A stretch of DNA of 64,000 nt. Origin: a bacterium (lineage in GTDB: Bacteria; UBP6; UBA1177). The DNA is taken from positions 13,190-77,189 of the forward strand of contig JAGCUA010000039.1 in NCBI GenBank assembly GCA_017963125.1, written 5' to 3'. Position numbers and translations under genes: made by a program. The notes beneath the pieces are model-generated. The model searched no databases, had not been told where the DNA came from, and was given only the letters and a program-made list of their open reading frames with translations. Of the stretch, positions 50,791-63,066 are shown one piece after another. Position 1 is the stretch's first letter, and the number at the start of each line of letters is the position of its first letter.

Positions 50791-52683
50791 ATGAAGAAAT
50801 ATACAACTTTAATTCTCGCTCTTTTACTGAGCTTCCTTCTTTTTGCTCAGGAAGAGCCCAAGCCTGAAGAGGCGGCAGTTCAGCAGGCTGGACAGGAACC
50901 TCAGGCTCAGGAAGAGCCTCAGGCGCCGGCGGCGAGAGCGCTGCCGATGCGCAATTTTGCGAAGCATCACAAAAAAGGCAGTGCCAACTCTGTTTTTACC
51001 GGAAGCAAGGAGAATGAATCCCTTGTAAAACTCGAGATCGAATACAAACTTCTCGACAACACTCCGCAGAAAAAGATCGAATACGCTGCTATCGTTTCGA
51101 ACAATGTCGTAGAGGGAACTCCGGAATACAAAACGATCGCTGAGCACCATGACGAAAGCACGATCGGCAACTACCTCATGATCACAGGTCTCGAGGCGGT
51201 CCTTCCGAACCAGAAGGAACAGAAGGATTCCAAACTTGCGGTCGTCGATCTTGATTCGTTCGATCCTGCAAAACAGGACTACAAAATCACGGCGATTTTC
51301 CCGAACGGTGAAAGAAAGGAATACAAACATTCAGACCTTCTTCTTGCCGACAACGGTGTCGCTTTCATCAACTTCAAGGAAGATCCGGAACTTTTCCCGG
51401 TTATGCTGAACGGCGAATCGGCGCGCGACGTAACACTCAATCGCACGCTCTACATCAAAAACTTCGGCAAAACCTATGAAGTTACCCCGCTTTTCATCAA
51501 TTTCTCGCTCCGTTCATCCGGAACGATGGAATATTACCTTCAGAAGAACAGAAGTTTCATTGCCCGTTTCTTCAACACCACGGCTGTCGCTCACATCACG
51601 ATAGGAAACCTGATAATGATGCTCGTTGCGTTCATTTTCATTTTCCTCGCGATCGCGAAAGACTATGAGCCGCTTCTTCTTCTCCCGATCGGTTTCGGTA
51701 TCCTCATCGGAAACATACCGACCGCGGCAGGTGTTCAGATCGGTGTCTACGATCCGGGCTCAGTTCTCAATTACCTCTACTTCGGAGTTCTGAAAGGTAT
51801 CTATCCTCCGCTTATCTTCATGGGTATCGGCGCAATGACCGACTTCTCCTACATGATCGCCAACCCGAAACTCATCCTTATCGGCGGCGGTGCTCAGGTA
51901 GGTATTTTCGCGGCATTCCTTATCGCTATCCTTCTTGGATTCAACCTTCAGGAAGCTGCTTCGATCGGTATCATCGGCGGTGCTGACGGCCCGACGGCTA
52001 TTTTCACGACAGGTCTCATGGCTCCGCACCTTTTGGGCGCAGTTGCAATCGCGGCTTACTCGTATATGGCTCTCGTTCCGGTTATCCAGCCCCCGATCGT
52101 AAAACTTCTCACGACCAAAAAGGAAAGACTCATCCGCATGAAACCGCCGCGCGTAGTTTCAAAGCGTGAAAGAATCGTATTCCCGATAGTTGCGTTCATC
52201 GTCTGCACATTCATCGCTCCCGGCGGACTTCCTCTTATCGGTATGCTCCTTCTCGGCAACATCATCAAGGAATCGGGCGTAACCGACAGACTTTCGAAGA
52301 CTGCAAGCAACGCACTTATCGATATCGTAACAGTTCTTATCGGTATCACGGTCGGTGCTTCAACAAGTGCTCAGACCTTCCTTACAGCCGCTTCGATCAA
52401 AATTTTCGCTCTCGGCGCACTTTCCTTCATGATCTCCACTGCCGGCGGCGTTCTGATCGCGAAACTCATCAACTGCTTCCTCAAACCGGGCAACAAACTC
52501 AACCCGATCATCGGATGCGCTGGTGTTTCCGCGGTTCCCGACAGTGCTCGTGTTGCACAGAATATCGGTAAACAGGCTGATCCGACGAACTACCTTCTTA
52601 TGCACGCAATGGCTCCGAACGTAGCAGGCGTTATCGGTTCCGCAATCGCTGCAGGTATATTGCTCGGCATCATCCCGCACTAA
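50791..52683 (+). CDS. mmdB: Na+-translocating decarboxylase beta subunit fused to a 245-aa N-terminal domain with signal/anchor sequence
   Basis: From residue ~246: NLIMMLVAFIFIFLAIAKDYEPLLLLPIGFGILIGNIP and GGADGPTAIF, typical of OadB/MmdB. Residues 1-245 are in the same frame with no stop. Confidence 0.85.
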   Translation: MKKYTTLILALLLSFLLFAQEEPKPEEAAVQQAGQEPQAQEEPQAPAARALPMRNFAKHHKKGSANSVFTGSKENESLVKLEIEYKLLDNTPQKKIEYAAIVSNNVVEGTPEYKTIAEHHDESTIGNYLMITGLEAVLPNQKEQKDSKLAVVDLDSFDPAKQDYKITAIFPNGERKEYKHSDLLLADNGVAFINFKEDPELFPVMLNGESARDVTLNRTLYIKNFGKTYEVTPLFINFSLRSSGTMEYYLQKNRSFIARFFNTTAVAHITIGNLIMMLVAFIFIFLAIAKDYEPLLLLPIGFGILIGNIPTAAGVQIGVYDPGSVLNYLYFGVLKGIYPPLIFMGIGAMTDFSYMIANPKLILIGGGAQVGIFAAFLIAILLGFNLQEAASIGIIGGADGPTAIFTTGLMAPHLLGAVAIAAYSYMALVPVIQPPIVKLLTTKKERLIRMKPPRVVSKRERIVFPIVAFIVCTFIAPGGLPLIGMLLLGNIIKESGVTDRLSKTASNALIDIVTVLIGITVGASTSAQTFLTAASIKIFALGALSFMISTAGGVLIAKLINCFLKPGNKLNPIIGCAGVSAVPDSARVAQNIGKQADPTNYLLMHAMAPNVAGVIGSAIAAGILLGIIPH

Positions 52684-52737
52684 GCGGTATTTGAGCTTTT
52701 TGTGATTTTACGGCTCCCTTCGGGGAGCCTTTTTTAT
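52681..52737 (+). repeat. Left copy of the 57-60-nt direct repeat (stop codon plus terminator of mmdB)
   Basis: TAAGCGGTATTTGAGCTTTTTGTGATTTTACGGCTCCCTTCGGGGAGCCTTTTTTAT. It matches 59710-59769 with 2 substitutions, 1 extra G and a T-run length difference. Confidence 0.9.
52712..52735 (+). terminator. Rho-independent terminator (UUCG tetraloop)
   Basis: GGCTCCC-TTCG-GGGAGCC followed by T6. Confidence 0.85.
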
Positions 52738-52814
52738 TTTTAAATAAATTTTTTCGCAGTTTTTTAATCTGTTAGTTTAATCAGTGTTCAAAAATATATA
52801 ATAAAATCAAATAG

Positions 52815-52842
52815 TTGACACTGTGAAAGCTATAAATATCAT
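52815..52842 (+). promoter_or_regulatory. Sigma70-type promoter candidate for hsdRMS
   Basis: TTGACA, 16-nt spacer, TATCAT. About 40 nt upstream of the ATG at 52882. Confidence 0.35.
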
Positions 52843-52881
52843 CATTGAGAAAATTTTGGGCGGTCAAATTAAGAGGATTTC

Positions 52882-55233
52882 ATGCTGTTAGACAAAAAAC
52901 AGATGTCGGAAGAAGATATCAAGCGCAACTTTATTACTCCGGCACTTCACATTAAAGGCTGGCATGACAAAATTACAATGGAAACAGCGATTACAGATGG
53001 TAGAATCCTTCTCGGCAGCAAAGGCAAGATGGCTGTTCGTGGTAAGCCTAAATTCGCTGACTATCTTCTTTACCTGAGTGCAAACAACCCGATTGCAGTA
53101 GTCGAAGCAAAGGATAATACTTACACTGTTTCTTTCGGTATGCAGCAGGCTATGGAATACGCCAAAATGCTTGATCTTCCGTTTGCATACAGTTCCAATG
53201 GAGACGGCTTTGTTGAGCATGATTTTCTTACCGGAGAGGAACGCGAATTCGGGCTTGATCAGTTTCCGACGGCTGATGAGTTGATTGCAAGATATAAATC
53301 CGAGCAGAACAACGGAACAGGACTTACAACGAATCAGGAAAAAATTATCGAGCAGCCCTATTACAGCAGTCAGAACACATATCCGCCGCGTTATTATCAG
53401 CGTATTGCCATCAATAGAACTTTGGACGCCATCGCAAAAGGTCAGGACCGGCTGCTTCTCGTTATGGCTACGGGAACAGGCAAAACTTATGTCGCGTTTC
53501 AAATAGTTTACCGCCTTTTGAAAAGCGGAATGAAAAGCAAAATTCTTTATCTTGCAGACCGCAATATTCTGGTGGATCAGTCAATTCAGCAGGATTTTGC
53601 CCCGCTGAACCAAGTTATTCATAAAATCAATGTCGCAAAAGACGACAAAACCACGATCACTTCTCACGAAGTCTATTTTTCATTGTATCAGCAGCTCGTT
53701 GGCGATGACGATCAGGAACACTTTTCGGAACTTTTTCAGCCGGATTTCTTTGATCTTGTTATTGTCGATGAGTGTCACAGGGGATCAGCGAAAGAAGAAA
53801 GCCGCTGGCGCAGAATTTTGGAGTATTTCAGTTCCGCCACACAGATCGGTATGACGGCCACGCCCAAAGAAACAAAGTATGTTTCGAACATCGATTATTT
53901 CGGCGAACCGGTTTACACTTACAGCCTGAATAAAGGAATCGACGACGGTTTTCTTGCGCCGTTTAAGGTGGTAAATATCAAAACAAACATCGGTGACGGC
54001 TGGCGGCCTGCGCCCGGGCAGCTTGATAAATTCGGGAATCCGATCGAAGACCGGGTATATAACAACAGAGATTATGATTACAACATTGTTATTGAAGACC
54101 GCATTCAGCAAGTGGCTTCGGAAATCACGAATTATCTGAAATTTACAGACCGCATGGCAAAAACCATAGTCTTCTGTGCTACTGAAGAAGCCGCAGAACG
54201 GATGCGTGTCGCATTGATCAATCTGAACTCAGATATGGTGAAAAAGAATCCGGATTACATTGTCAGGATCACCGGAAGCGATGATTACGGAAAAAGCAAA
54301 CTCGATTATTTTATTTCCGTTTCTTCGAAATATCCTGTTATAGCCACGACATCAAAACTGCTTTCCACTGGCGTTGACTGCAAAATGACAAAGTTGATCG
54401 TTTTGGATCAGATAATCGGTTCAATGACAGAGTTCAAGCAGATTATAGGCCGGGGAACACGTTTAAGAGAAAAAGACGGCAAACTCAGTTTTGCAATTAT
54501 GGATTTCCGCAATGTCACAAACTTATTTTCTGATCCTGATTGGGACGGTCCTATTGTAATTGATCCCGATTATCCGCCTGTAAAAAAGCCGGAACCCAAT
54601 GATCCTAGTCTTCCGCCGGTTGATTTTCCGGAACCTCCGGTTTCAGAGCCTAAAATCAAACCGATTGTTGATAAATCGGGCTGCCGTGTTGAGATAATTC
54701 AAAAAACTGTATCTGTTTATGATCCGCACGGTATTTTGCTCAGGCAGGAAAGTATCACCGACTACACAAAAAAGAACATTGTCGGAGAGTATGCGTCTCT
54801 TGATAATTTCATCCGCGAATGGCGTAAAGATCCTGAAAAAAGAACAATTATAAACATGCTTTCAGAACGCGGCATCAATATTGAACAGATGAAGGCCGAA
54901 AACGGCATGTCTGATGTCGATGATTTCGATTTTATATGCCATGTGGCTTATGACAAGAAGCCTCTTACACGCAGAGAAAGGGCTAACAATGTGAAAAAAC
55001 GCGATTTTCTCAGCAGATACAACGGTGTTGCCCGCGAAATTCTTGAAGCACTGCTTGACAAGTATATGAATGACGGCATTTCCGATATCTGCAACACGGA
55101 AATTTTGAAACTCGAGCCTTTCTTAAAATACGGTAAACCCTCCAGAATTTCTGAATTTTTCGGCGGTAGAGAAGGGTATCTGGAAGCGGTCAAGAAACTG
55201 GAAGAAGAAATCTATATGGATGAGGTGATTTAA
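52882..55233 (+). CDS. hsdR: Type I restriction enzyme R subunit (type IB / EcoEI-EcoAI-like)
   Basis: N-terminal nuclease core ADYLLY...AVVEAKD. Helicase motifs LLVMATGTGKT, VIVDECHRG, MTATP and QIIGRGTR. The C-terminal DNFIREW...LEPF...G tail resembles the EcoEI R C-terminal domain. Confidence 0.9.
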   Translation: MLLDKKQMSEEDIKRNFITPALHIKGWHDKITMETAITDGRILLGSKGKMAVRGKPKFADYLLYLSANNPIAVVEAKDNTYTVSFGMQQAMEYAKMLDLPFAYSSNGDGFVEHDFLTGEEREFGLDQFPTADELIARYKSEQNNGTGLTTNQEKIIEQPYYSSQNTYPPRYYQRIAINRTLDAIAKGQDRLLLVMATGTGKTYVAFQIVYRLLKSGMKSKILYLADRNILVDQSIQQDFAPLNQVIHKINVAKDDKTTITSHEVYFSLYQQLVGDDDQEHFSELFQPDFFDLVIVDECHRGSAKEESRWRRILEYFSSATQIGMTATPKETKYVSNIDYFGEPVYTYSLNKGIDDGFLAPFKVVNIKTNIGDGWRPAPGQLDKFGNPIEDRVYNNRDYDYNIVIEDRIQQVASEITNYLKFTDRMAKTIVFCATEEAAERMRVALINLNSDMVKKNPDYIVRITGSDDYGKSKLDYFISVSSKYPVIATTSKLLSTGVDCKMTKLIVLDQIIGSMTEFKQIIGRGTRLREKDGKLSFAIMDFRNVTNLFSDPDWDGPIVIDPDYPPVKKPEPNDPSLPPVDFPEPPVSEPKIKPIVDKSGCRVEIIQKTVSVYDPHGILLRQESITDYTKKNIVGEYASLDNFIREWRKDPEKRTIINMLSERGINIEQMKAENGMSDVDDFDFICHVAYDKKPLTRRERANNVKKRDFLSRYNGVAREILEALLDKYMNDGISDICNTEILKLEPFLKYGKPSRISEFFGGREGYLEAVKKLEEEIYMDEVI

Positions 55234-55235
55234 AT

Positions 55236-56714
55236 ATGGGCAATTTATCGGGTTTTGTAAAGCGTCTCCGCGATATTATGAGAAACGATGCCGGTATCAA
55301 CGGTGATGCACAGCGTATCGAACAGATTGCATGGATGCTTTTTCTCAAGGTATATGACTCCAAGGAATCAGACTGGAAATTTGACGATCAGAATTATGTT
55401 TCGATTATTCCTGAAGAATGCCGCTGGGTGAACTGGGCGCATGATGACAAGTCCGGCAGGGCTATGACTGGTGAAAGACTTCTTGATTTTGTCAACAATA
55501 CGCTTTTTCCGATTTTGAAAAAACTGCCGGTCGATGCTTCCACGCCGATAAAACAGGCTATCGTGCAGACGACTTTCGCCGATGCGAACAACTACATGAA
55601 AGACGGTGTTCTGCTTCGCCAGATTATAAATATCATCGACGAGCTTGATCTTTCAGATTACGAGGAAAGTTACGCTTTCGGCGAAATATACGAATCGATT
55701 TTGAAAGAGCTGCAAAGTGCGGGTTCAGCCGGTGAATTCTATACGCCGCGTGCTGTTACAGACTTTATGGCTCAGATGATAAAACCGCAGATCGGTGAAA
55801 AAATGGCCGACTTCGCATGCGGAACAGGCGGCTTTCTTACAAGCTGGCTGAAGGAGCTTGAAAAAAAGGTGAAAACCACTGCCGACCGTGCCGAGTTCGG
55901 TACTTCAGTTTACGGTATCGAGAAAAAGCAGTTCCCGTATATGCTCTGCATTACGAATATGCTTCTGCATGATCTCGATGTTCCGCAGGTGTTCCACGAC
56001 AACAGTCTTCTTTATGATGTGCTTGACTACACGGAACATGACCAGTTTGATGTTGTGCTGATGAATCCTCCTTATGGCGGCAGTGAAAAGGCCGAGGTCA
56101 AAAACCATTTTCCGGCTGATCTTGCAAGTTCCGAAACTGCTGATCTCTTTCTTTCTGTCATCATGTACCGCTTGAAAAAAAACGGACGTTGCGCTGTAAT
56201 CCTGCCGGACGGATTTCTTTTCGGTACAGACAACGCAAAAATCAACATCAAGAAAAAACTTCTTTCGGAGTTTAATCTTCACACCGTAATCCGTATGCCG
56301 CAGAGTGTGTTTTCGCCTTATACATCGATCACAACGAACATTCTCTTCTTTGAACGCGCCGGACGCACAACGGAGACTTGGTTTTATCGTCTCGATATGC
56401 CGGAAGGGTACAAGCATTTTTCAAAGACAAAGCCGATGAAACTGGAGCATTTCGCTCCTGCGGTGGAATGGTGGAACAACCGTGTCGCAATCAATGAAGA
56501 CGGCTTTGACAAAGCACGAAAATTCACTGTGAAAGAACTTTCTGAAGATTTGGGATACAACCTTGATCAATGCGGCTATCCGCACGCTGAAGAAGAGATC
56601 CTTGCACCTATGGATTTGATTCAACGCTATCAGGAAGAGCGTGCCTCGCTGAACGCGGAAATTGACCGTGTTCTTGCTGAAATCACCGACAAGCTCGGAG
56701 GAACTGCGCAATGA
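55236..56714 (+). CDS. hsdM: Type I R-M N6-adenine DNA methyltransferase subunit
   Basis: HsdM N-terminal domain (IEQIAWMLFLK). GEFYTPR. DFACGTGGFL (motif I). VLMNPPYGG (motif IV). Confidence 0.95.
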   Translation: MGNLSGFVKRLRDIMRNDAGINGDAQRIEQIAWMLFLKVYDSKESDWKFDDQNYVSIIPEECRWVNWAHDDKSGRAMTGERLLDFVNNTLFPILKKLPVDASTPIKQAIVQTTFADANNYMKDGVLLRQIINIIDELDLSDYEESYAFGEIYESILKELQSAGSAGEFYTPRAVTDFMAQMIKPQIGEKMADFACGTGGFLTSWLKELEKKVKTTADRAEFGTSVYGIEKKQFPYMLCITNMLLHDLDVPQVFHDNSLLYDVLDYTEHDQFDVVLMNPPYGGSEKAEVKNHFPADLASSETADLFLSVIMYRLKKNGRCAVILPDGFLFGTDNAKINIKKKLLSEFNLHTVIRMPQSVFSPYTSITTNILFFERAGRTTETWFYRLDMPEGYKHFSKTKPMKLEHFAPAVEWWNNRVAINEDGFDKARKFTVKELSEDLGYNLDQCGYPHAEEEILAPMDLIQRYQEERASLNAEIDRVLAEITDKLGGTAQ

Positions 56715-58159
56715 CTCCGCAGGAACTGAAAAACAGCATCCTTCAGCTTGCAATTCAAGGCAAATTGGTGCCGCAAATACCCGAAGAAGGAACTGCGGAA
56801 GAACTTTATCAGCAGATCCAGGCTGAAAAACAGAAACTCATCAAAGAAGGAATAATTAGGCAGGATACAGACATCACAGAACCAGATGAGTATCCATTTG
56901 ATATCCCCGACAGTTGGGTTATGGCAAGGATTACAGATTGTGGCGCTTTTATTTCTGGATTCACACCAAAGCCAAATGAGTTGGCAGAAGCAGGAAGAAT
57001 TCCATATTTCAAGGTATCTGATATGAACACTGAAGGAAACGAGGTTTATCTCAGTATCACAACTGCTTTTCTTAAAGATGATAGCCCCAAAAAGTACTTT
57101 CTTAAGAACACGATAGTATATCCAAAAAACGGTGGGGCTGTCTTTACGAACAAAAAGCGAATTCTTGTACAAGATTCCATAGTAGATTTGAACACAGGCG
57201 GATACTCAGTTATCGGGCCAGTCAATCTCATGTATTTCTATTATTTTTTTCTCCTTATCGACTTTAGGCAATGTTATAAAGGGACCGCACTTCCCACGAT
57301 TGATATGGACAGGCTTAAGCGAAAGTGGATTCCTCTTCCGCCTCTTGCCGAGCAAAAGAGGATTGTCGCCAAGATTGAAGAGCTGCTGCCGCTGATCGAC
57401 CGCTATGAGCAGGCTTGGAGCCGTCTTGAAGAATTTAATAAGCGTTTTCCTGAAGATATGAAAAAATCCATCCTGCAATATGCGATTCAGGGGAAACTTG
57501 TGGAGCAACGCCCGGAGGAAGGCACCGGCGAAGAATTGTATCAGCAGATTCAGGCAGAAAAGCAGAAACTGATCAAAGAGGGAAAGATCAAGAAAGAAAA
57601 ACCTCTGCCGGAGATTACAGAAGAGGAAAAGCCGTTTGAAATTCCGGAAAGTTGGAAGTGGGTACGGTTTTCTGCTGTTATTGATGTGCGTGACGGAACG
57701 CACGATACACCGAAATATGTTTTAGATGGAATCCCTCTTGTAACCAGTAAAAATCTAGTCGATGGCAGAATTGATTTTGAAACGGCAAAGAACATTTCGG
57801 TTGAAGATGCAACAGTTATAAATATACGTTCTCGTGTTGATGACGGAGATATTCTGTTCGCCATGATTGGAACTATTGGCAATCCCGTTATAGTTAAGAA
57901 AGATCGGGAGTTCAGCATTAAGAATATGGCTCTATTCAAACAAATTGATGATTCTTTACTTGACATGAGATATGTGTTGTTTTTTTTGCAGAGAGCACAA
58001 ACTGATATGAGGGCAATTGCCAATGCCAGCGTACAGTCGTTTGTTTCATTGACCGTCTTGCGGAATTATTTGTTTCCTCTCCCGCCTCTTGCTGAGCAGA
58101 AAAGGATTGTCGCGAAGTTGGAAGAGTTGCTGGAATTAAGTGAAAAATTAAAAAAATGA
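56711..58159 (+). CDS. hsdS: Type I R-M specificity subunit with two target-recognition domains
   Basis: Duplicated conserved regions LPPLAEQKRIVAK(I/L)EELL and ILQ(L/Y)AIQGKLV...EELYQQIQAEKQKLIKEG flank two divergent TRDs. 4-nt overlap with hsdM. Confidence 0.9.
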   Translation: MTPQELKNSILQLAIQGKLVPQIPEEGTAEELYQQIQAEKQKLIKEGIIRQDTDITEPDEYPFDIPDSWVMARITDCGAFISGFTPKPNELAEAGRIPYFKVSDMNTEGNEVYLSITTAFLKDDSPKKYFLKNTIVYPKNGGAVFTNKKRILVQDSIVDLNTGGYSVIGPVNLMYFYYFFLLIDFRQCYKGTALPTIDMDRLKRKWIPLPPLAEQKRIVAKIEELLPLIDRYEQAWSRLEEFNKRFPEDMKKSILQYAIQGKLVEQRPEEGTGEELYQQIQAEKQKLIKEGKIKKEKPLPEITEEEKPFEIPESWKWVRFSAVIDVRDGTHDTPKYVLDGIPLVTSKNLVDGRIDFETAKNISVEDATVINIRSRVDDGDILFAMIGTIGNPVIVKKDREFSIKNMALFKQIDDSLLDMRYVLFFLQRAQTDMRAIANASVQSFVSLTVLRNYLFPLPPLAEQKRIVAKLEELLELSEKLKK

Positions 58160-58180
58160 AAGAAGATTTTACAATAATGT

Positions 58181-58208
58181 TTGACAAAAATTTATTTTGC
58201 GATAATAT
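58181..58208 (+). promoter_or_regulatory. Sigma70-type promoter candidate for the ImmA/cyclase-like pair
   Basis: TTGACA (58181-58186), 16-nt spacer, TAATAT (58203-58208). GGAGGTGA RBS at 58237-58244. Confidence 0.45.
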
Positions 58209-58247
58209 ATTGTGCTTCGTTGGTAAAAATATTTGTGGAGGTGATTC

Positions 58248-58778
58248 ATGAGCTCTTCAAAACGCTATCAAGCAATTGAAGCTTTGGCTGAATCTATTAG
58301 AAAACAGCTCTATCCTTCCCACCCTGTAGATATGCAGGAAGTCGTTAAAAGTCTCAAAGGAGAATTGCAGGAAGAGTCTTTTGAAGATTCAACAATATCT
58401 GGCAAAATTGAGAAGGTTGGTGATGCTTTTAAAATTTCCTATAACAAAGAACATTCTCCACAGCGTTCTGGATTTACAATCGCTCACGAAATAGGACATT
58501 TATTTCTCCACATGGGATATATTATAGACCCTGAAAAATGGGATAGTATAAACGACTACTGTGACTCTCCTAAATATCGGCAAGGATATTCTGTGGAAGA
58601 ATATGAGGCAAATCATTTCGCAGGTGCATTCTTGATGCCTAAAGATGATTATGAGAACTTCCTTAGAGAGAATGGCCACAACAACAAAATTGATATCAGC
58701 TTGATAGCTGAACATTTTAATGTTTCTTTTGATGCTGCATTGACAAGAGGTAAGTGGCTTGGCATCTTCGACTGGTAA
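58248..58778 (+). CDS. ImmA/IrrE-family (COG2856) zinc metallopeptidase
   Basis: RSGFTIAHEIGHLFLH HExxH motif. Downstream EEYEANHFAGAFLMP motif at the spacing typical of the family. 176 aa. No HTH partner gene is present. Confidence 0.85.
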   Translation: MSSSKRYQAIEALAESIRKQLYPSHPVDMQEVVKSLKGELQEESFEDSTISGKIEKVGDAFKISYNKEHSPQRSGFTIAHEIGHLFLHMGYIIDPEKWDSINDYCDSPKYRQGYSVEEYEANHFAGAFLMPKDDYENFLRENGHNNKIDISLIAEHFNVSFDAALTRGKWLGIFDW

Positions 58779-59712
58779 TCGCTGGACAGATATTAACTTA
58801 AATGTATCTGATGTTGAACTTGCAAAATCTTATAATGAAATCGTCACTAAAAACATATATGTCTTTTTTTCATTTGATCTGGTCGGATCAACTAAATTCA
58901 AGACTGAAAAAACAAATTGGCCCTATGTTATTTCTTATTTTTACGACACTGTTTATAAGAAATTAAAATATTTAATCCCCCAGATCAAGGTATGGAAATA
59001 TTTAGGAGACGAAATTCTTTTATATGTTTCGATTTGCGATTTCGATTCTCCATCTGTAATTTATATGATCCCTGACACGGTTTATTCTATTCAACTGAAA
59101 GTGGCAGAATCAATCCAAAAAATTCCGGAAGCTAAAAAACTTGATGTAAAATCAACCATTTGGATGGCAGGGGTTCAGGCAGTAGAGTCAGAAAAATTCA
59201 ATCTTTCAAATATCCCGCAAACCTATCAAAATTACAAAAATCTAAAAGTAAAATTAAATGTGGAGGATCAAGATCAGGTGGATTTCCTTGGTCCGGATAT
59301 GGATATAGGCTTCCGTATTGCTAAGTTCGCATTTCATCACAAAATTGTATTAAGTGCAGATTTTGCGTATTTCTTACATTTTACAAAGCCCGAAAACTGT
59401 GACATAGATGAAAAACTGCAAATTGTTTCATTCGAGATTTTAAAAGGAGTATGGAACGAACAGTATTATCCAATTATATGGTACTATCCTGATTGGGAAA
59501 CTAAACCGTATGGCTTCTTTTATGCAGATCATAAGAAAAATGAGATTGCAGAGAGAGTTTTATCCGAAAGAGTTGAAACTATTGATGAATTGGAAAATGT
59601 CTATAAGGAATTGGAGAAAATTGACGAAATAAATGCATTTGTCAATGAATGCAATCGAGTAAATTATTCAAAAGAAAGAGACTTTTTGCTTCATCTCGAA
59701 ACTAGAAAATAA
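58759..59712 (+). CDS. Class III nucleotidyl-cyclase-like protein (317 aa) with uncharacterised C-terminal ~100 aa
   Basis: VFFSFDLVGSTKF (Asp40) and KYLGDEILLY (Asp84, 44 residues later) match the two metal-binding Asp motifs FxDIxGFT and IGDxxM. STIWMAGVQAV and DFLGPDMDIGFRIAKFA..HKIVLSADF match the hGxHxG and GxxVNxAxR...IxxS segments. TTG start behind AAGAGG, overlapping the ImmA gene by 20 nt. Confidence 0.6.
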   Translation: MASSTGNRWTDINLNVSDVELAKSYNEIVTKNIYVFFSFDLVGSTKFKTEKTNWPYVISYFYDTVYKKLKYLIPQIKVWKYLGDEILLYVSICDFDSPSVIYMIPDTVYSIQLKVAESIQKIPEAKKLDVKSTIWMAGVQAVESEKFNLSNIPQTYQNYKNLKVKLNVEDQDQVDFLGPDMDIGFRIAKFAFHHKIVLSADFAYFLHFTKPENCDIDEKLQIVSFEILKGVWNEQYYPIIWYYPDWETKPYGFFYADHKKNEIAERVLSERVETIDELENVYKELEKIDEINAFVNECNRVNYSKERDFLLHLETRK

Positions 59713-59769
59713 GCGATATTTAAGCTTTTTGTGATTTTACGGGCTCCCTTCGGGGAGCCTTTTTTTTAT
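59710..59769 (+). repeat. Right copy of the direct repeat (stop codon of the cyclase-like gene plus terminator)
   Basis: TAAGCGATATTTAAGCTTTTTGTGATTTTACGGGCTCCCTTCGGGGAGCCTTTTTTTTAT. Confidence 0.9.
59742..59767 (+). terminator. Rho-independent terminator (duplicate of 52712)
   Basis: GGCTCCC-TTCG-GGGAGCC followed by T8. Confidence 0.85.
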
Positions 59770-59927
59770 AGATTTTTTTGTGGAAACATTTCAAAACGTT
59801 TTTGCGATCATGTAGGTTTCTTCTTACAATTCAGCTACCTATATTTTTTACTCTTATTGACTTTCCGTGGCGTAAAATGATAATTCCCCGCTTTTCAGCC
59901 GTTACCTAAACGGCAGGGAGATTTTCG

Positions 59928-61280
59928 ATGAGACGTGAAATCGACATGCTTAACGGCGGTTTCGCCGCAAAAATACTTCAGTTTGCGATCCCGCTTGCTC
60001 TGACGGGGATCCTCCAGCAGTTTTTCAATGCGGCGGACGTCATGGTCGTAGGGCGTTTTGCAAGCAAGTTTGCGATGGCTGCTGTCGGCTGCAACACTCC
60101 TGTTATCGGCATTGTCGTCAACCTTTTTGTCGGGATCTCGACCGGCGCGACTGTCGTTATCGCCAAGTGTATCGGGCGCGGCGATAGCTCCGGAGTGAAG
60201 AAGGCTGTCCACACCGCGGTCTTTTTGAGTCTTGTCTGCGGAAGCGTGATGGCGCTTGTTGCGCTTGCTGTTTCAAGCCGCATCATGTCGCTTCTTTCGG
60301 TGCCGGAAGAGGTCCTTCCGATGGCGCTTTCTTATTTTCGGATCTACATTTCGGGACTTCCGGCGATACTTCTTTACAACTTCGAATCTGCGATTTTCCG
60401 CTCGAAAGGAGATACGAACACGCCTCTTTTCTGCCTTATTGCTGCAGGAATCGTGAATGTTCTGCTCAACCTCTTTTTTGTTCTCGTCCTCAAAATGGGA
60501 GCGGAAGGAGTCGCGATAGCCACTGTCATCTCCAACATCCTGAGTTCGGGAGCTATGTTCATAGTTCTTCTGCGCTCCAGAAGCGATGTCGGGATCGAGT
60601 TCCACCTCATCAGAGCTGACCACGCTTCGCTTTTGGAAATCCTGCGCATCGGCGTTCCGGCAGGTGTCCAGAGCATGGTTTTCGCCTTGTCGAACATCAT
60701 AATCCAGTCTGCGATAAATTCTCTCGGGCCCGATGTCATGGCTGCTTCGGCTGCCGCTTTCAATACTGAAATTTTCGCATACTTCATCGTGAACGCTTTC
60801 GGCCAGGCATGCACAGCTTTCATCGGGCAGAATTACGGCGCGAAGAAGTTCGACCGCTGCCGGAAAGTCACAATTCATGCCTTCTGGATGGACTGCGCTT
60901 TCACCGCCGCTGTAGCTCTTCCGATAATCATTTTTTCGAGGGAACTCCTTGCTCTTTTCAACGGCGATCCAGCTGTCATTGAATACGGAAGAACTAGAAT
61001 TCTCTACATCACATCTTTCCAGTTCCTGAACCTTACGACCGAAATTTTCTCAGGAAGTCTGCGTGGTTACGGCAATTCTCTCGCTCCGGCTCTGATCGCG
61101 CTGCTCGGCATCTGCGTGACGCGCGTCATCTGGGTCTTCACCGTTTTTCCGATGCATAGCGACTACGCCACGCTTCTTGCGTGCTACCCGATAAGCTGGT
61201 TCATCACGACATCGATACTTACAGGCTACTACTTCTGGTTCATGCGGGTCGCGCTGAAAAGGAAAGTTGCCGGAATATAG
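59928..61280 (+). CDS. MATE-family multidrug/efflux transporter
   Basis: 450 aa, 12 TM. FAIPLALTGILQQFFNAADVMVVGRF N-terminal MATE signature. Confidence 0.9.
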   Translation: MRREIDMLNGGFAAKILQFAIPLALTGILQQFFNAADVMVVGRFASKFAMAAVGCNTPVIGIVVNLFVGISTGATVVIAKCIGRGDSSGVKKAVHTAVFLSLVCGSVMALVALAVSSRIMSLLSVPEEVLPMALSYFRIYISGLPAILLYNFESAIFRSKGDTNTPLFCLIAAGIVNVLLNLFFVLVLKMGAEGVAIATVISNILSSGAMFIVLLRSRSDVGIEFHLIRADHASLLEILRIGVPAGVQSMVFALSNIIIQSAINSLGPDVMAASAAAFNTEIFAYFIVNAFGQACTAFIGQNYGAKKFDRCRKVTIHAFWMDCAFTAAVALPIIIFSRELLALFNGDPAVIEYGRTRILYITSFQFLNLTTEIFSGSLRGYGNSLAPALIALLGICVTRVIWVFTVFPMHSDYATLLACYPISWFITTSILTGYYFWFMRVALKRKVAGI

Positions 61281-61318: not shown

Positions 61319-62428
61319 TTATTCGTTAACGCATGAAGAATCTTTCCATGTGAAATTTTCTTTGCATTTGAAACGGCATTCGGAAGCTATTTTGGTTTCA
61401 CATTGATAGTTGACGCCGTTGAAAGAGAATTCTCCGAGACATTCGTAGCATTTGCCGGTTTCCGCGCCATATTCTAAACCGTTTTCGCACATAGCAGGTT
61501 CTTCACATTTAAGAGGTGCTGAAACAGGAAGATCGTTTTTATACATAACAGTATGGGTTTCATCATACAGCAGCGTCACATTGTTTTCTTCTTTGCTGTA
61601 ACCTCTGATTGTTATCGATGAATTGCAGCAGCATGGGACAAGTTCACCGCTGTTTTCTATAGCCTCACTTTCGGTTTTGTAACATTTGTCCTTGTCTGCC
61701 AGAGCATATTTATTCCCGCCGTCACTAGTAGTTGAAAAACCGTTTTTATATGTCCAGGTTCCGCAGCCGTCTATCTGACAAAAATCATTTTGCAAGCTTG
61801 TTCCGGTCGGGCAGGAAGGAGGCTGAATAGTGGCTTTCGCTTCCGGATAAGAGGTTTCTTCCTTGATAACAGGAACTTCGTCACTGTATTCACCTTTTTC
61901 AGACGGTGTGTATTCACCGTTTTCCAAGGTTTGGGTTATGAGAGAAGCGCCGTTCCACTCTGCATTTTCAGGAAGTCCGGTACACGAAACAGTTCTCTCC
62001 TGCGGAAGAGTATCTCCGTCGTCGCCAGTATCGGAAGTATCGCTCGTGTCAGAGGTATCACTTGTATCTGAGGTGTCGCTCGTGTCTGAAGTGTCGCTCG
62101 TGTCTGAAGTGTCGCTCGTATCTGAAGTGTCGCTCGTATCGGAAGTGTCGCTCGTGTCAGATGTGTCGCTCGTATCGGAAGTGTCGCTCGTGTCGGAAGT
62201 GTCGCTCGTATCGGAAGTGTCACTTGTATCGGAAGTATCGCTTGTGTCTGAAGTATCGCTCGTATCGGAGGTGTCACTCGTATCTGAAGTGTCCGGCGTA
62301 TCGGAATCTTCGTCAGGAATTTGATCCTGATCTTCGTTTGCCACGGGTGAAATTCGTTTTACAGCATCATCGCCGCAACCGACCGCAACAAGAAAAACGA
62401 TAAAGAAAATCAAAAAAGACTTTTTCAT
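61319..62428 (-). CDS. Surface lipoprotein with (SDT)31 tandem repeat and Cys-rich C-terminal region
   Basis: Lipobox FLVAVGCGDD. 93-aa SDT array. More than 20 Cys in the C-terminal 230 aa. Confidence 0.7.
   Translation of the reverse strand: MKKSFLIFFIVFLVAVGCGDDAVKRISPVANEDQDQIPDEDSDTPDTSDTSDTSDTSDTSDTSDTSDTSDTSDTSDTSDTSDTSDTSDTSDTSDTSDTSDTSDTSDTSDTSDTSDTSDTSDTSDTSDTSDTSDTGDDGDTLPQERTVSCTGLPENAEWNGASLITQTLENGEYTPSEKGEYSDEVPVIKEETSYPEAKATIQPPSCPTGTSLQNDFCQIDGCGTWTYKNGFSTTSDGGNKYALADKDKCYKTESEAIENSGELVPCCCNSSITIRGYSKEENNVTLLYDETHTVMYKNDLPVSAPLKCEEPAMCENGLEYGAETGKCYECLGEFSFNGVNYQCETKIASECRFKCKENFTWKDSSCVNE
62027..62305 (-). repeat. 31 x 9-bp in-frame tandem repeat encoding Ser-Asp-Thr (one Pro-Asp-Thr unit)
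   Basis: Read directly from the sequence: GTATC(G/A/T)GA(A/G/T) type units on the plus strand. 279 nt. Confidence 0.95.
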
Positions 62429-62593
62429 GACAGCCTCCTTAAATCAACAAAAAAACACAATATTTTAAACCTATTGGAAAAGAAATAAAGATTTAATTTT
62501 TCGATTAAAAAAAATTGATGTTGACAAAATCGTAACATTGCAAAAACTTGGCAGCGGCATGGATTGATTGGGCCTAAAAAAGCGGAGGTTTCG

Positions 62594-62729
62594 GTGAAAC
62601 TGATAAAAATCAATAATATAAAAGAGGAAATGAATCGCGTGGAAGAGCTTTATTTAAGCGCTTTTCCGGCAAACGAACGGTTTCCTTTCCGGCTTCTGAA
62701 AAAGCGTGCGCTCCAGGGAAAAGCCGACT
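62594..62729 (+). pseudogene. 5' fragment (about 45 codons) of a GNAT-type acetyltransferase gene, truncated at a fusion junction
   Basis: GCGGAGG RBS plus GTG. VKLIKINNIKEEMNRVEELYLSAFPANERFPFRLLKKRALQGKADF resembles the N-terminus of small GNAT proteins. Past ~62730 the sequence switches to MATE-homologous DNA in another frame. Confidence 0.4.
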
Positions 62730-62730
62730 T

Positions 62731-63066
62731 CTCGCTCTTTTCAACGGCGATCCCGCTGTCATTGAATACGGCAGGACGAGGATCCTCTACATCACTTCTT
62801 TCCAAATACTCAACCTTACGGTCGATATTCTTTCAGGAAGTCTTCGCGGCTACGGCAATTCTCTTGCTCCCGCTCTGATTGCGCTTTTAGGCATCTGTGT
62901 GACGCGCGTCATCTGGGTTTTCACCGTCTTTCCTCTCCACAGCGACTATTCTACGCTTCTTGCATGCTATCCGATAAGCTGGAGCATCACAGCAACGATA
63001 ATGCTCTGCTACTATTTCTGGTTCATGCGGGTCGCGCTGAAAAGGAAAGTTACCTTACACAGATGA
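62731..63066 (+). pseudogene. Orphan 3' remnant (111 codons plus stop) of a second, diverged MATE transporter gene
   Basis: Collinear with 60948-61280. Translates to LALFNGDPAVIEYGRTRILYITSFQ...FWFMRVALKRKV. It has no start and no 5' part. Differences from the intact copy are mostly at third codon positions. Confidence 0.75.

Follow-up and report, generated by a model that had tools for sequence, protein, structure and literature searches.

A mobile two-gene cassette pairing an M78 peptidase with a predicted divergent class III cyclase is a candidate minimal member of a widespread Pycsar-like family

The stretch of DNA analysed here, 64,000 nucleotides of the bacterial contig JAGCUA010000039.1 (the window), carries on its forward strand a compact pair of overlapping genes, placed between hsdS (56711-58159), the last gene of a type I restriction–modification (R-M) operon, and a MATE transporter gene (59928-61280). 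An initial annotation, made from the sequence, had described the pair as an ImmA/IrrE-type zinc peptidase translationally coupled to a class III cyclase-like protein, and as an independent unit with its own promoter and terminator that rides on an R-M island. We compared the pair with individual loci of its family, which carry labels in the style of L001 to L137, L001 being the closest relative. Counts of family loci refer to 84 non-redundant loci, and the invariance of residues was counted over 77 sequences. The cassette comprises the following features, its limits being drawn from similarity to L001 and from guanine-plus-cytosine (GC) content:

58150..59770, + strand: whole mobile cassette (promoter region, two overlapping genes, terminator)
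58181..58208, + strand: promoter-like site TTGACA-16-TAATAT, 10/12 positions matching
58237..58244, + strand: Shine–Dalgarno sequence GGAGGTGA of gene 1, read from the sequence
58248..58778, + strand: gene 1, M78 (ImmA/IrrE/CapP-type) zinc metallopeptidase, ATG start, 176 aa
58745..58750, + strand: AAGAGG ribosome-binding site of gene 2, within the 3′ end of gene 1, read from the sequence
58759..59712, + strand: gene 2, predicted divergent class III nucleotidyl cyclase, TTG start, 317 aa, short form without a NUDIX domain
59741..59768, + strand (stem 59741-59760): predicted intrinsic terminator, GGGCTCCC-TTCG-GGGAGCC followed by a T run

The limits of the element emerge from a DNA alignment with L001, in which near-identity runs from about 90 nt 5′ of gene 1 through the terminator and the flanks are unrelated. 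These roughly 90 nt, the promoter-like site included, are nearly identical in L001 despite a different upstream neighbour, and the terminator is identical, with similarity stopping just past its T run. Across positions 52000-60000 the GC content falls in two steps: the surrounding genes stand at about 0.50-0.52, hsdRMS at 0.42-0.46 and the cassette at about 0.34-0.355, which is consistent with two separate acquisitions. Promoter region, genes and terminator move together as one low-GC cassette of about 1.6 kb, and the boundaries shared with L001, together with the drop in GC, indicate that this cassette was acquired separately from the R-M operon. The description of an independent unit ending at a terminator is thus borne out, while that of a promoter of its own holds in part: the site is there and the region around it is kept in L001, but promoter-like sites in this AT-rich stretch are not more frequent than expected by chance (11 found, against 7.4 +/- 2.6 in shuffled sequences). 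No terminator is predicted between hsdS and gene 1, so that transcripts of the hsd operon may also run on into the cassette. The cassette hides no further small open reading frame (ORF) and no helix-turn-helix (HTH) gene, having 88 nt of intergenic sequence upstream and the terminator downstream.

The coupling of the two genes was also described correctly. They overlap by 20 nt, the TTG of gene 2 is its sole canonical in-frame start 5′ of the first conserved strand, and the same TTG and AAGAGG context recurs in L002, L003, L004 and L128; in L001, gene 2 starts with an ATG 3 nt past the gene 1 stop. The GGAGG of the gene 1 ribosome-binding site is likewise kept in homologous cassettes.

Gene 1 bears the HEIGH motif at residues 80-84 and EANHFAGAFLMP at 118-129, and profile and structure searches agree with its assignment to the M78 (ImmA/IrrE) peptidases. 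It matches Pfam PF06114 (Peptidase_M78) with an E value of 5.5e-17 and 62 bits, against a cut-off of 22, and its best PADLOC model is capP (E 6.9e-27, profile positions 3-149 of 242). The RmrA models come next in PADLOC, with gene 1 aligned to their peptidase portion alone (e.g., 139-294 of 380), and NCBIfam offers nothing above threshold, its one weaker match being to the peptidase half of spr1629-type antitoxins. CapP (7t5t) is the best match in a sequence search of the Protein Data Bank (PDB; E 5.5e-5) and, with PprI/IrrE, heads the Foldseek matches of an AlphaFold model built from 66 homologues (mean predicted local distance difference test, pLDDT, 89.8), among which the M78-like domain of M. 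tuberculosis PrpR also appears. Residues H80, E81, H84, H88 and E118 are invariant in all 77 family sequences, and the ratio of non-synonymous to synonymous substitution rates (dN/dS) against L001 is 0.18. Judged by these matches, gene 1 is an active-looking, minimal, single-domain M78 peptidase closest to CapP, and the same compact build is seen in 198 of 198 close homologues, which are single-domain proteins of 170-200 aa. CapP itself is a peptidase activated by single-stranded DNA (ssDNA) that cleaves one partner protein, and it carries an inter-domain ssDNA groove and a cysteine-switch loop; its second, C-terminal domain with these two elements is not present in gene 1, as judged from the length of 176 aa and the coverage of the capP profile.

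The fold of gene 2 was revealed by structure prediction alone; sequence searches gave nothing useful. In PADLOC-DB 2.0 (2023), Pfam (2025) and NCBIfam (June 2026) gene 2 has no match, and in Pfam and PADLOC none even at E <= 1; a profile search of PDB sequences returned NUDIX hydrolases only, through longer family members described below. The AlphaFold model, built on a 70-sequence alignment, has a pLDDT of 89 and a predicted template modelling (TM) score of 0.86. Its best 50 Foldseek matches in the PDB are all cyclase catalytic domains, the class III enzymes reaching E values of about 1e-8 with probability 1.0 and target TM-scores of 0.65-0.80, and these include Cya2, CyaC, CyaB, Rv1900c, mammalian adenylyl cyclase and soluble guanylate cyclase. 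Among viral structures in BFVD, proteins with a guanylate cyclase domain match at 6e-8 to 7e-6, and GGDEF proteins at just 0.02-0.05. The GGDEF and Cas10-palm folds, which the initial annotation had named for comparison, were rejected along with the mCpol fold, since class III cyclases match far better. The model divides into a cyclase homology domain (residues ~30-245) and a C-terminal helical extension (~257-317).

The cyclase motifs that had been noticed in the sequence find their places in this model. Thirteen residues are invariant in the 77 gene 2 sequences (D40, S44, K48, W79, G83, D84, E85, G178, D182, G184, R186, G230 and P238), and K229 is kept in 75 of them. By motif spacing and the order of secondary-structure elements, without residue-level superposition, the first metal-binding Asp would fall in FSFD40LVGS44T, close to where strand 1 ends, and the second in WK80YLGD84E85, within the beta2-beta3 hairpin. 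The motif D175FLG178PD-M-D182-x-G-F-R186 reproduces the class III G-x3-N-x3-R spacing with the Asn replaced by the invariant D182; the helix equivalent to alpha4 carries both D182 and R186, and LK229G230 lies in the last hairpin of the AlphaFold model. On these grounds gene 2 is predicted to encode a class III nucleotidyl cyclase that has diverged very far yet keeps an intact active site; its dN/dS against L001 is 0.24. Residues 80 and 175 (window 58996-58998 and 59281-59283) covary, being K-D in 35 sequences, that of the window included, and R-E in 32, a pattern that suggests two purine-type specificities. Because K80 and D175 occupy the positions of the Lys and Asp that specify adenine in adenylyl cyclases, our guess for the substrate of the window protein would be a purine, possibly ATP.

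Peptidase and cyclase are conserved as one unit, and the adjacent pair recurs in many other genomes. A gene 1 homologue lies directly upstream on the same strand in 76 of the 84 loci, which cover at least 12 phyla plus prophages, and the distance between the two genes ranges from -128 to +24 nt, mostly as an overlap. Pairwise identities of the two proteins are correlated (Mantel r = 0.86, a value reached by 0 of 999 permutations). The reciprocal test gave the same picture: in all four loci picked independently via the peptidase, the next gene downstream belongs to the cyclase family; these loci lie in Leptospira, in a Rummeliibacillus prophage, on a widespread gut contig and, as a short form, beside a type I R-M operon. 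The two genes are thus tightly and reciprocally co-conserved, co-evolving and under purifying selection. Some short-form cyclases are found without an upstream peptidase (e.g., L129:3406-4422 and L131:5987-6892); in these loci a 338-aa PD-(D/E)xK/Mrr-like or a 301-aa TIR-like protein stands upstream, both judged by eye and with no recorded Pfam match.

The family to which the window protein belongs is large. A gene 2 profile, run against 185,579 species with a single genome for each, led to 174 confirmed relatives; viral contigs gave 39, and a profile search of 1.84 billion cluster representatives returned 909 sequence clusters at E <= 1e-30; the protein libraries searched place family members in no family or under 'unknown function'. 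Most members are longer than the window protein, at 440-530 aa, and continue after its terminal helical extension into a C-terminal NUDIX-fold domain (examples are L018:6004-7695 and L127:5001-6587; range L005-L118). The NUDIX box of these long forms is degenerate, with G653, Y674 and an upstream His invariant and the catalytic Glu residues poorly conserved, so that, going by its sequence, the domain may serve in ligand binding rather than hydrolysis. In the PADLOC search the long forms match a NUDIX model only, and no Pycsar cyclase model.

A further partner in the family is a membrane protein. In 46 of the 84 loci, a PycTM/2TM-type gene of about 175 aa with transmembrane helices is adjacent to the pair, lying directly downstream, upstream or convergent, and the family can therefore be called Pycsar-like. 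These proteins match Pfam PF18967 (Pycsar effector protein) at E values down to 2e-10, the CBASS-type '2TM' model of PADLOC at 2e-36 and its PycTM model at 1e-23. The gene is unevenly distributed between the two specificity classes, being present in 29 of 32 loci of the R-E class versus 12 of 35 of the K-D class. On one metagenome contig (L135:6058-7665) the PycTM gene downstream of the pair is split by the insertion of a DDE_3 transposase gene and an HTH gene, and it is intact on an otherwise identical contig (L136:6058-6564); the disruption may represent the inactivation of a toxic effector. The short-form clade that contains the window protein has neither NUDIX domain nor PycTM gene, and a hidden Markov model built from the PycTM-like genes of the family finds nothing in the 64-kb window at E <= 10, in keeping with the initial remark that no effector accompanies the pair.

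The main carriers of short forms are Treponema-like spirochaetes from metagenomes of gut and rumen, with others in Aminicenantes, Myxococcota, an actinobacterium and prophages; the short forms are full-length and diverse, down to about 40% identity. No conserved third gene was found in short-form loci, where the neighbours vary between R-M genes, relaxases, HTH-rich phage regions and others. Two loci of the family share the same arrangement, L003:5493-8910 in a metagenome-assembled genome of Treponema and L006:5493-8981 in the actinobacterial Paratractidigestivibacter: the pair is followed by homologous proteins of 392 and 397 aa with a relaxase-like His motif, recognised by eye, and then by a second homologous gene, with gene 2 of L006 split by a frameshift. 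Their likeness suggests cross-phylum transfer on a mobilisable element.

Neighbours are otherwise unrelated from locus to locus (182 Pfam families in 138 neighbour proteins), as is typical of a mobile module. Those connected with defence or mobility that recur include type I R-M, BrxC/D (BREX), integrases, recombinases and a relaxase. Temperate phages of Clostridioides difficile carry the complete three-gene form, 100% identical in phiC2, phiCD27, phiCDHM19, CDKM9 and phiCD508. In phiCD27 (L127, NC_011398, 4504-7169) it consists of the peptidase gp38, the cyclase-NUDIX protein gp37 and the membrane protein gp36, the last on the opposite strand, and PHROGs labels the three proteins 'metallo-protease' or 'unknown function'. 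The phage form sits between the lysis genes (endolysin) and the integrase, an interval that is a frequent site of accessory genes in temperate phages. In a Verrucomicrobiia locus (L012:4223-4948, - strand) the pair faces, in convergent orientation, a further cyclase-like gene of 241 aa, unrelated to gene 2 and judged by eye from its motifs FVDMRNS and IEGDCVWG.

Among known systems, Pycsar, with its 2026 offshoot Pucsar, is the closest. It shares with the family a class III-type cyclase found in defence islands and prophages and, in the 46 loci just described but not in the window copy, an adjacent PycTM-type membrane protein. The cyclase of the present family differs in being too divergent for PF00211 or the PADLOC Pycsar models, in its obligatory M78 peptidase and usually fused NUDIX-like domain, and in base-specifying positions that would suggest purines. 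A 2026 survey of clades of immune cyclic mononucleotide cyclases mentions neither an M78-linked nor a NUDIX-fused clade. A 2025 preprint on Phold reports a coding sequence in phiC2 and phiCD27 that is structurally like a Pycsar cyclase (TM-score 0.87, 20% identity), probably the long-form homologue; peptidase, NUDIX domain and membrane gene go unmentioned there, and this is the only earlier trace found.

On the side of the peptidase, CapP/CapH offers the nearest comparison, an M78 peptidase with HExxH that is attached to nucleotide-signalling immune operons, CapP being the top match of gene 1. However, gene 1 is the catalytic domain alone, without the C-terminal domain of CapP, and no CapH-type HTH repressor stands beside it, its neighbours being hsdS and the MATE gene, nor is one conserved in the family, where HTH_3 occurs in just 2 of the 138 neighbour proteins. 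The absence of the usual HTH partner had been remarked on at the outset and extends to cassette, window neighbours and family alike. That the peptidase gene overlaps a cyclase gene suggests a partnership at the protein level and not transcriptional control of the CapH kind. The ImmA/ImmR, IrrE(PprI)/DdrO and Xre-COG2856 pairs have the same peptidase fold and HExxH...E site and cut one partner on a stress cue; here, unlike in those pairs, there is no adjacent or fused HTH substrate and the partner is an enzyme. RosmerTA is, similarly, a two-gene module with an M78 domain that resides in defence islands, and its RmrA models match gene 1, but RmrA has about 360-400 aa (an N-terminal HTH part plus M78) and gene 1 lacks the N-terminal part, while gene 2 matches no PADLOC model, hence no RmrT model.

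The canonical class III cyclases CyaC, Cya2, CyaB and Rv1900c are the best structural matches of gene 2 and share with it the order and spacing of metal-binding Asp residues, Lys-Asp pair, Arg and final Lys-Gly. Gene 2 differs from them in having no detectable sequence-profile similarity, in the replacement of the transition-state Asn by the invariant D182, in an invariant Glu after the second metal-binding Asp (GDE), in the lack of sensory N-terminal domains and in its residence in a mobile cassette. A full-text literature search found no named system with M78 peptidase, cyclase and NUDIX domain, with an earlier description being possible, for example in a 2015 paper on nucleotide-centric conflict systems, and there is no model for the cyclase in the releases of PADLOC-DB, Pfam and NCBIfam used here. 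The initial view that the pair matches no named system therefore stands in so far as gene 2 goes unrecognised by these three libraries, and needs amending in so far as the pair looks like a reduced member of a Pycsar-like family with a PycTM gene in more than half of its loci.

The R-M operon ahead of the cassette lies outside it and consists of three genes, identified by Pfam families precomputed for identical proteins on metagenome contigs:

52882..55233, + strand: hsdR
55236..56714, + strand: hsdM
56711..58159, + strand: hsdS

A cassette directly follows hsdS in the window, L001/L123, L002, L026 and L128, and lies beside a type I operon in L137. The operons ahead of these cassettes differ in gene content and in the sizes of their subunits. 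L026 is a long form in Treponema bryantii, and in L128 the cassette is followed by GmrSD, HNH, SduA_C (Shedu-SduA_C) and Mrr genes. In L123:8723-9322 (= L001:4768-5370) an extra and different M78 gene of 194-200 aa overlaps the end of hsdS and precedes the cassette. Searches with phmmer using the HsdR, HsdM and HsdS of the window find matches in just 4 of the 84 loci, and clustering added a few more divergent HsdS proteins. A general link between the family and type I R-M was rejected, as only a few of the 84 loci have R-M genes nearby. R-M loci being few overall and recurrent in spirochaetes, the arrangement is therefore best described as a lineage-specific habit, and the picture of a pair riding on an R-M island applies to the spirochaete lineage and not to the family in general.

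We lean towards the following interpretation, which we hold to be somewhat probable: the region is a self-contained mobile two-gene cassette, a minimal member of a widespread and unnamed family of Pycsar-like nucleotide-signalling systems, and probably serves anti-phage defence. Gene 2 presumably forms a homodimer and would make a cyclic mononucleotide, and translational coupling would provide a dedicated peptidase in fixed proportion to the cyclase. Because ImmA, IrrE and CapP stay quiet until a stress or infection cue and then cut one partner, the peptidase could, by analogy, gate the cyclase, an inhibitory part of which it would cleave or release during infection. In the full-size relatives the nucleotide would then open the PycTM-type membrane effector and stop the infected cell (abortive infection). 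Since the window copy is without NUDIX domain and PycTM gene, its output might pass through a receptor encoded elsewhere or consist in the consumption of nucleotides; cooperation with the R-M system would be another route. More tentative is the sharper proposal that the M78 peptidase is itself the infection sensor and switch that directly activates this unrecognised clade of class III cyclases, with the minimal form free of an effector and its nucleotide addressed to a receptor elsewhere or acting together with the R-M system; we consider this possible but doubtful.

Several observations weigh against the interpretation of a peptidase-gated, Pycsar-like system. The window copy has no effector gene and about half of the family has none that is recognisable, and for this reason the two-gene core may work without a second-messenger receptor. 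The kinship with Pycsar cyclases is distant, in that neither PF00211 nor the PADLOC Pycsar cyclase (PycC) models match gene 2, and a single Pycsar uridylate cyclase appears among the best 50 structural matches, at rank 50, behind ordinary signalling cyclases, which score higher. K80 and D175 would be specificity residues by motif spacing and secondary-structure order, not by superposition. As to the gating step, gene 1 lacks the C-terminal domain of CapP and therefore cannot sense infection in the way CapP does, no fusions of peptidase and cyclase occur among the top 150 family representatives, and no conserved cleavage motif is seen.

The effector-free state of about half of the loci would also be explained if the pair were a toxin–antitoxin (TA) or addiction module, in which the cyclase is the toxin, through a toxic nucleotide or a drain on nucleoside triphosphates, and the co-translated peptidase is an antidote that continuously degrades or blocks it. 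Loss of the cassette, or a shut-off of host translation by a phage, would then free the cyclase, and the module could stabilise the R-M island or prophage that carries it. The gene order, with the putative antidote ahead of its toxin in tight translational coupling, the M78 domains in the predicted antitoxins of RosmerTA and spr1629-type pairs, and the presence of the cassette on mobile elements in variable contexts all agree with such a role. However, a protease would be unusual as a stable antitoxin and the known M78 antitoxins carry an HTH part that gene 1 lacks, and the many loci with a PycTM partner speak for a nucleotide that signals rather than poisons. We regard this alternative, the main rival, as unlikely, and it overlaps with the gated-cyclase interpretation, from which it differs only in the sign of regulation. 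Roles could also be exchanged, with the cyclase sensing infection and its nucleotide activating the M78 peptidase to cut host or phage proteins. The invariant active site of the peptidase and the want of another candidate effector in short forms speak for this, but gene 1 is a bare catalytic domain of 176 aa with no recognisable nucleotide-binding module, the relatives known so far cleave a single dedicated partner rather than serving as general effectors, and the effector, where there is one, is PycTM and not a variant of the peptidase. In a few short-form loci, moreover, unrelated genes replace the peptidase and the cyclase stays. A peptidase that acts as the output thus seems to us improbable.

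Two further explanations carry still less weight. The pair might be an accessory regulator of the adjacent type I R-M system, for example by relieving or boosting restriction once DNA is damaged or while becoming established in a new host. Its recurrent placement after hsdS or, in L137, beside the operon, the want of a terminator between hsdS and gene 1 and the extra M78 gene after hsdS in L123 would fit such a function. Set against these are the conserved upstream region and terminator of the cassette itself, its GC content far below that of the hsd operon, and the wider distribution, with a handful of the 84 loci near type I genes and most in prophages or unrelated contexts, and we think that there is little chance of this being its role. 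Less credible still is a decaying, non-functional remnant of the three-gene system, an idea that arises from the loss of both NUDIX domain and effector, parts that many relatives carry. Short forms are a diverse, full-length clade spread over several phyla and prophages, no catalytic residue has been lost, purifying selection acts on both genes, and the identical cassette is found on 12 metagenome contigs (4 among the matches listed), which makes decay very improbable.

If the cassette is indeed a defence system of the Pycsar-like kind, it bears on a gap in the Pycsar-related literature examined, which holds no description of how Pycsar-type cyclases sense infection: a cyclase locked to a protease of the stress-switch family is a concrete candidate for the activation step. 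Proteolysis would then be a new regulatory layer in cyclic-mononucleotide immunity, the NUDIX-like fold with its degenerate catalytic box would be a new accessory domain, and the natural minimal versions could reveal what the core pair does by itself. Should it instead act as a TA-like stabiliser, its make-up of cyclase plus protease would be unusual for such a module. In either case the family is sizeable, unannotated and present in well-studied C. difficile phages.

Beyond the MATE gene that follows the cassette, the window holds a gene for a predicted lipoprotein of 369 aa (61319-62428, - strand) with a long stretch of (Ser-Asp-Thr)n, whose coding sequence is a tandem repeat (62028-62306; 15.5 copies of 18 nt); the length of the protein varies among metagenome contigs, with 351, 357 and 369 aa. 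Further on, a 55-aa ORF (62899-63066, + strand) is closely similar to the C-terminus of the MATE transporter and looks like the fragment of a second copy, and just upstream of it lies a GNAT-like N-terminal fragment (62564-62878).

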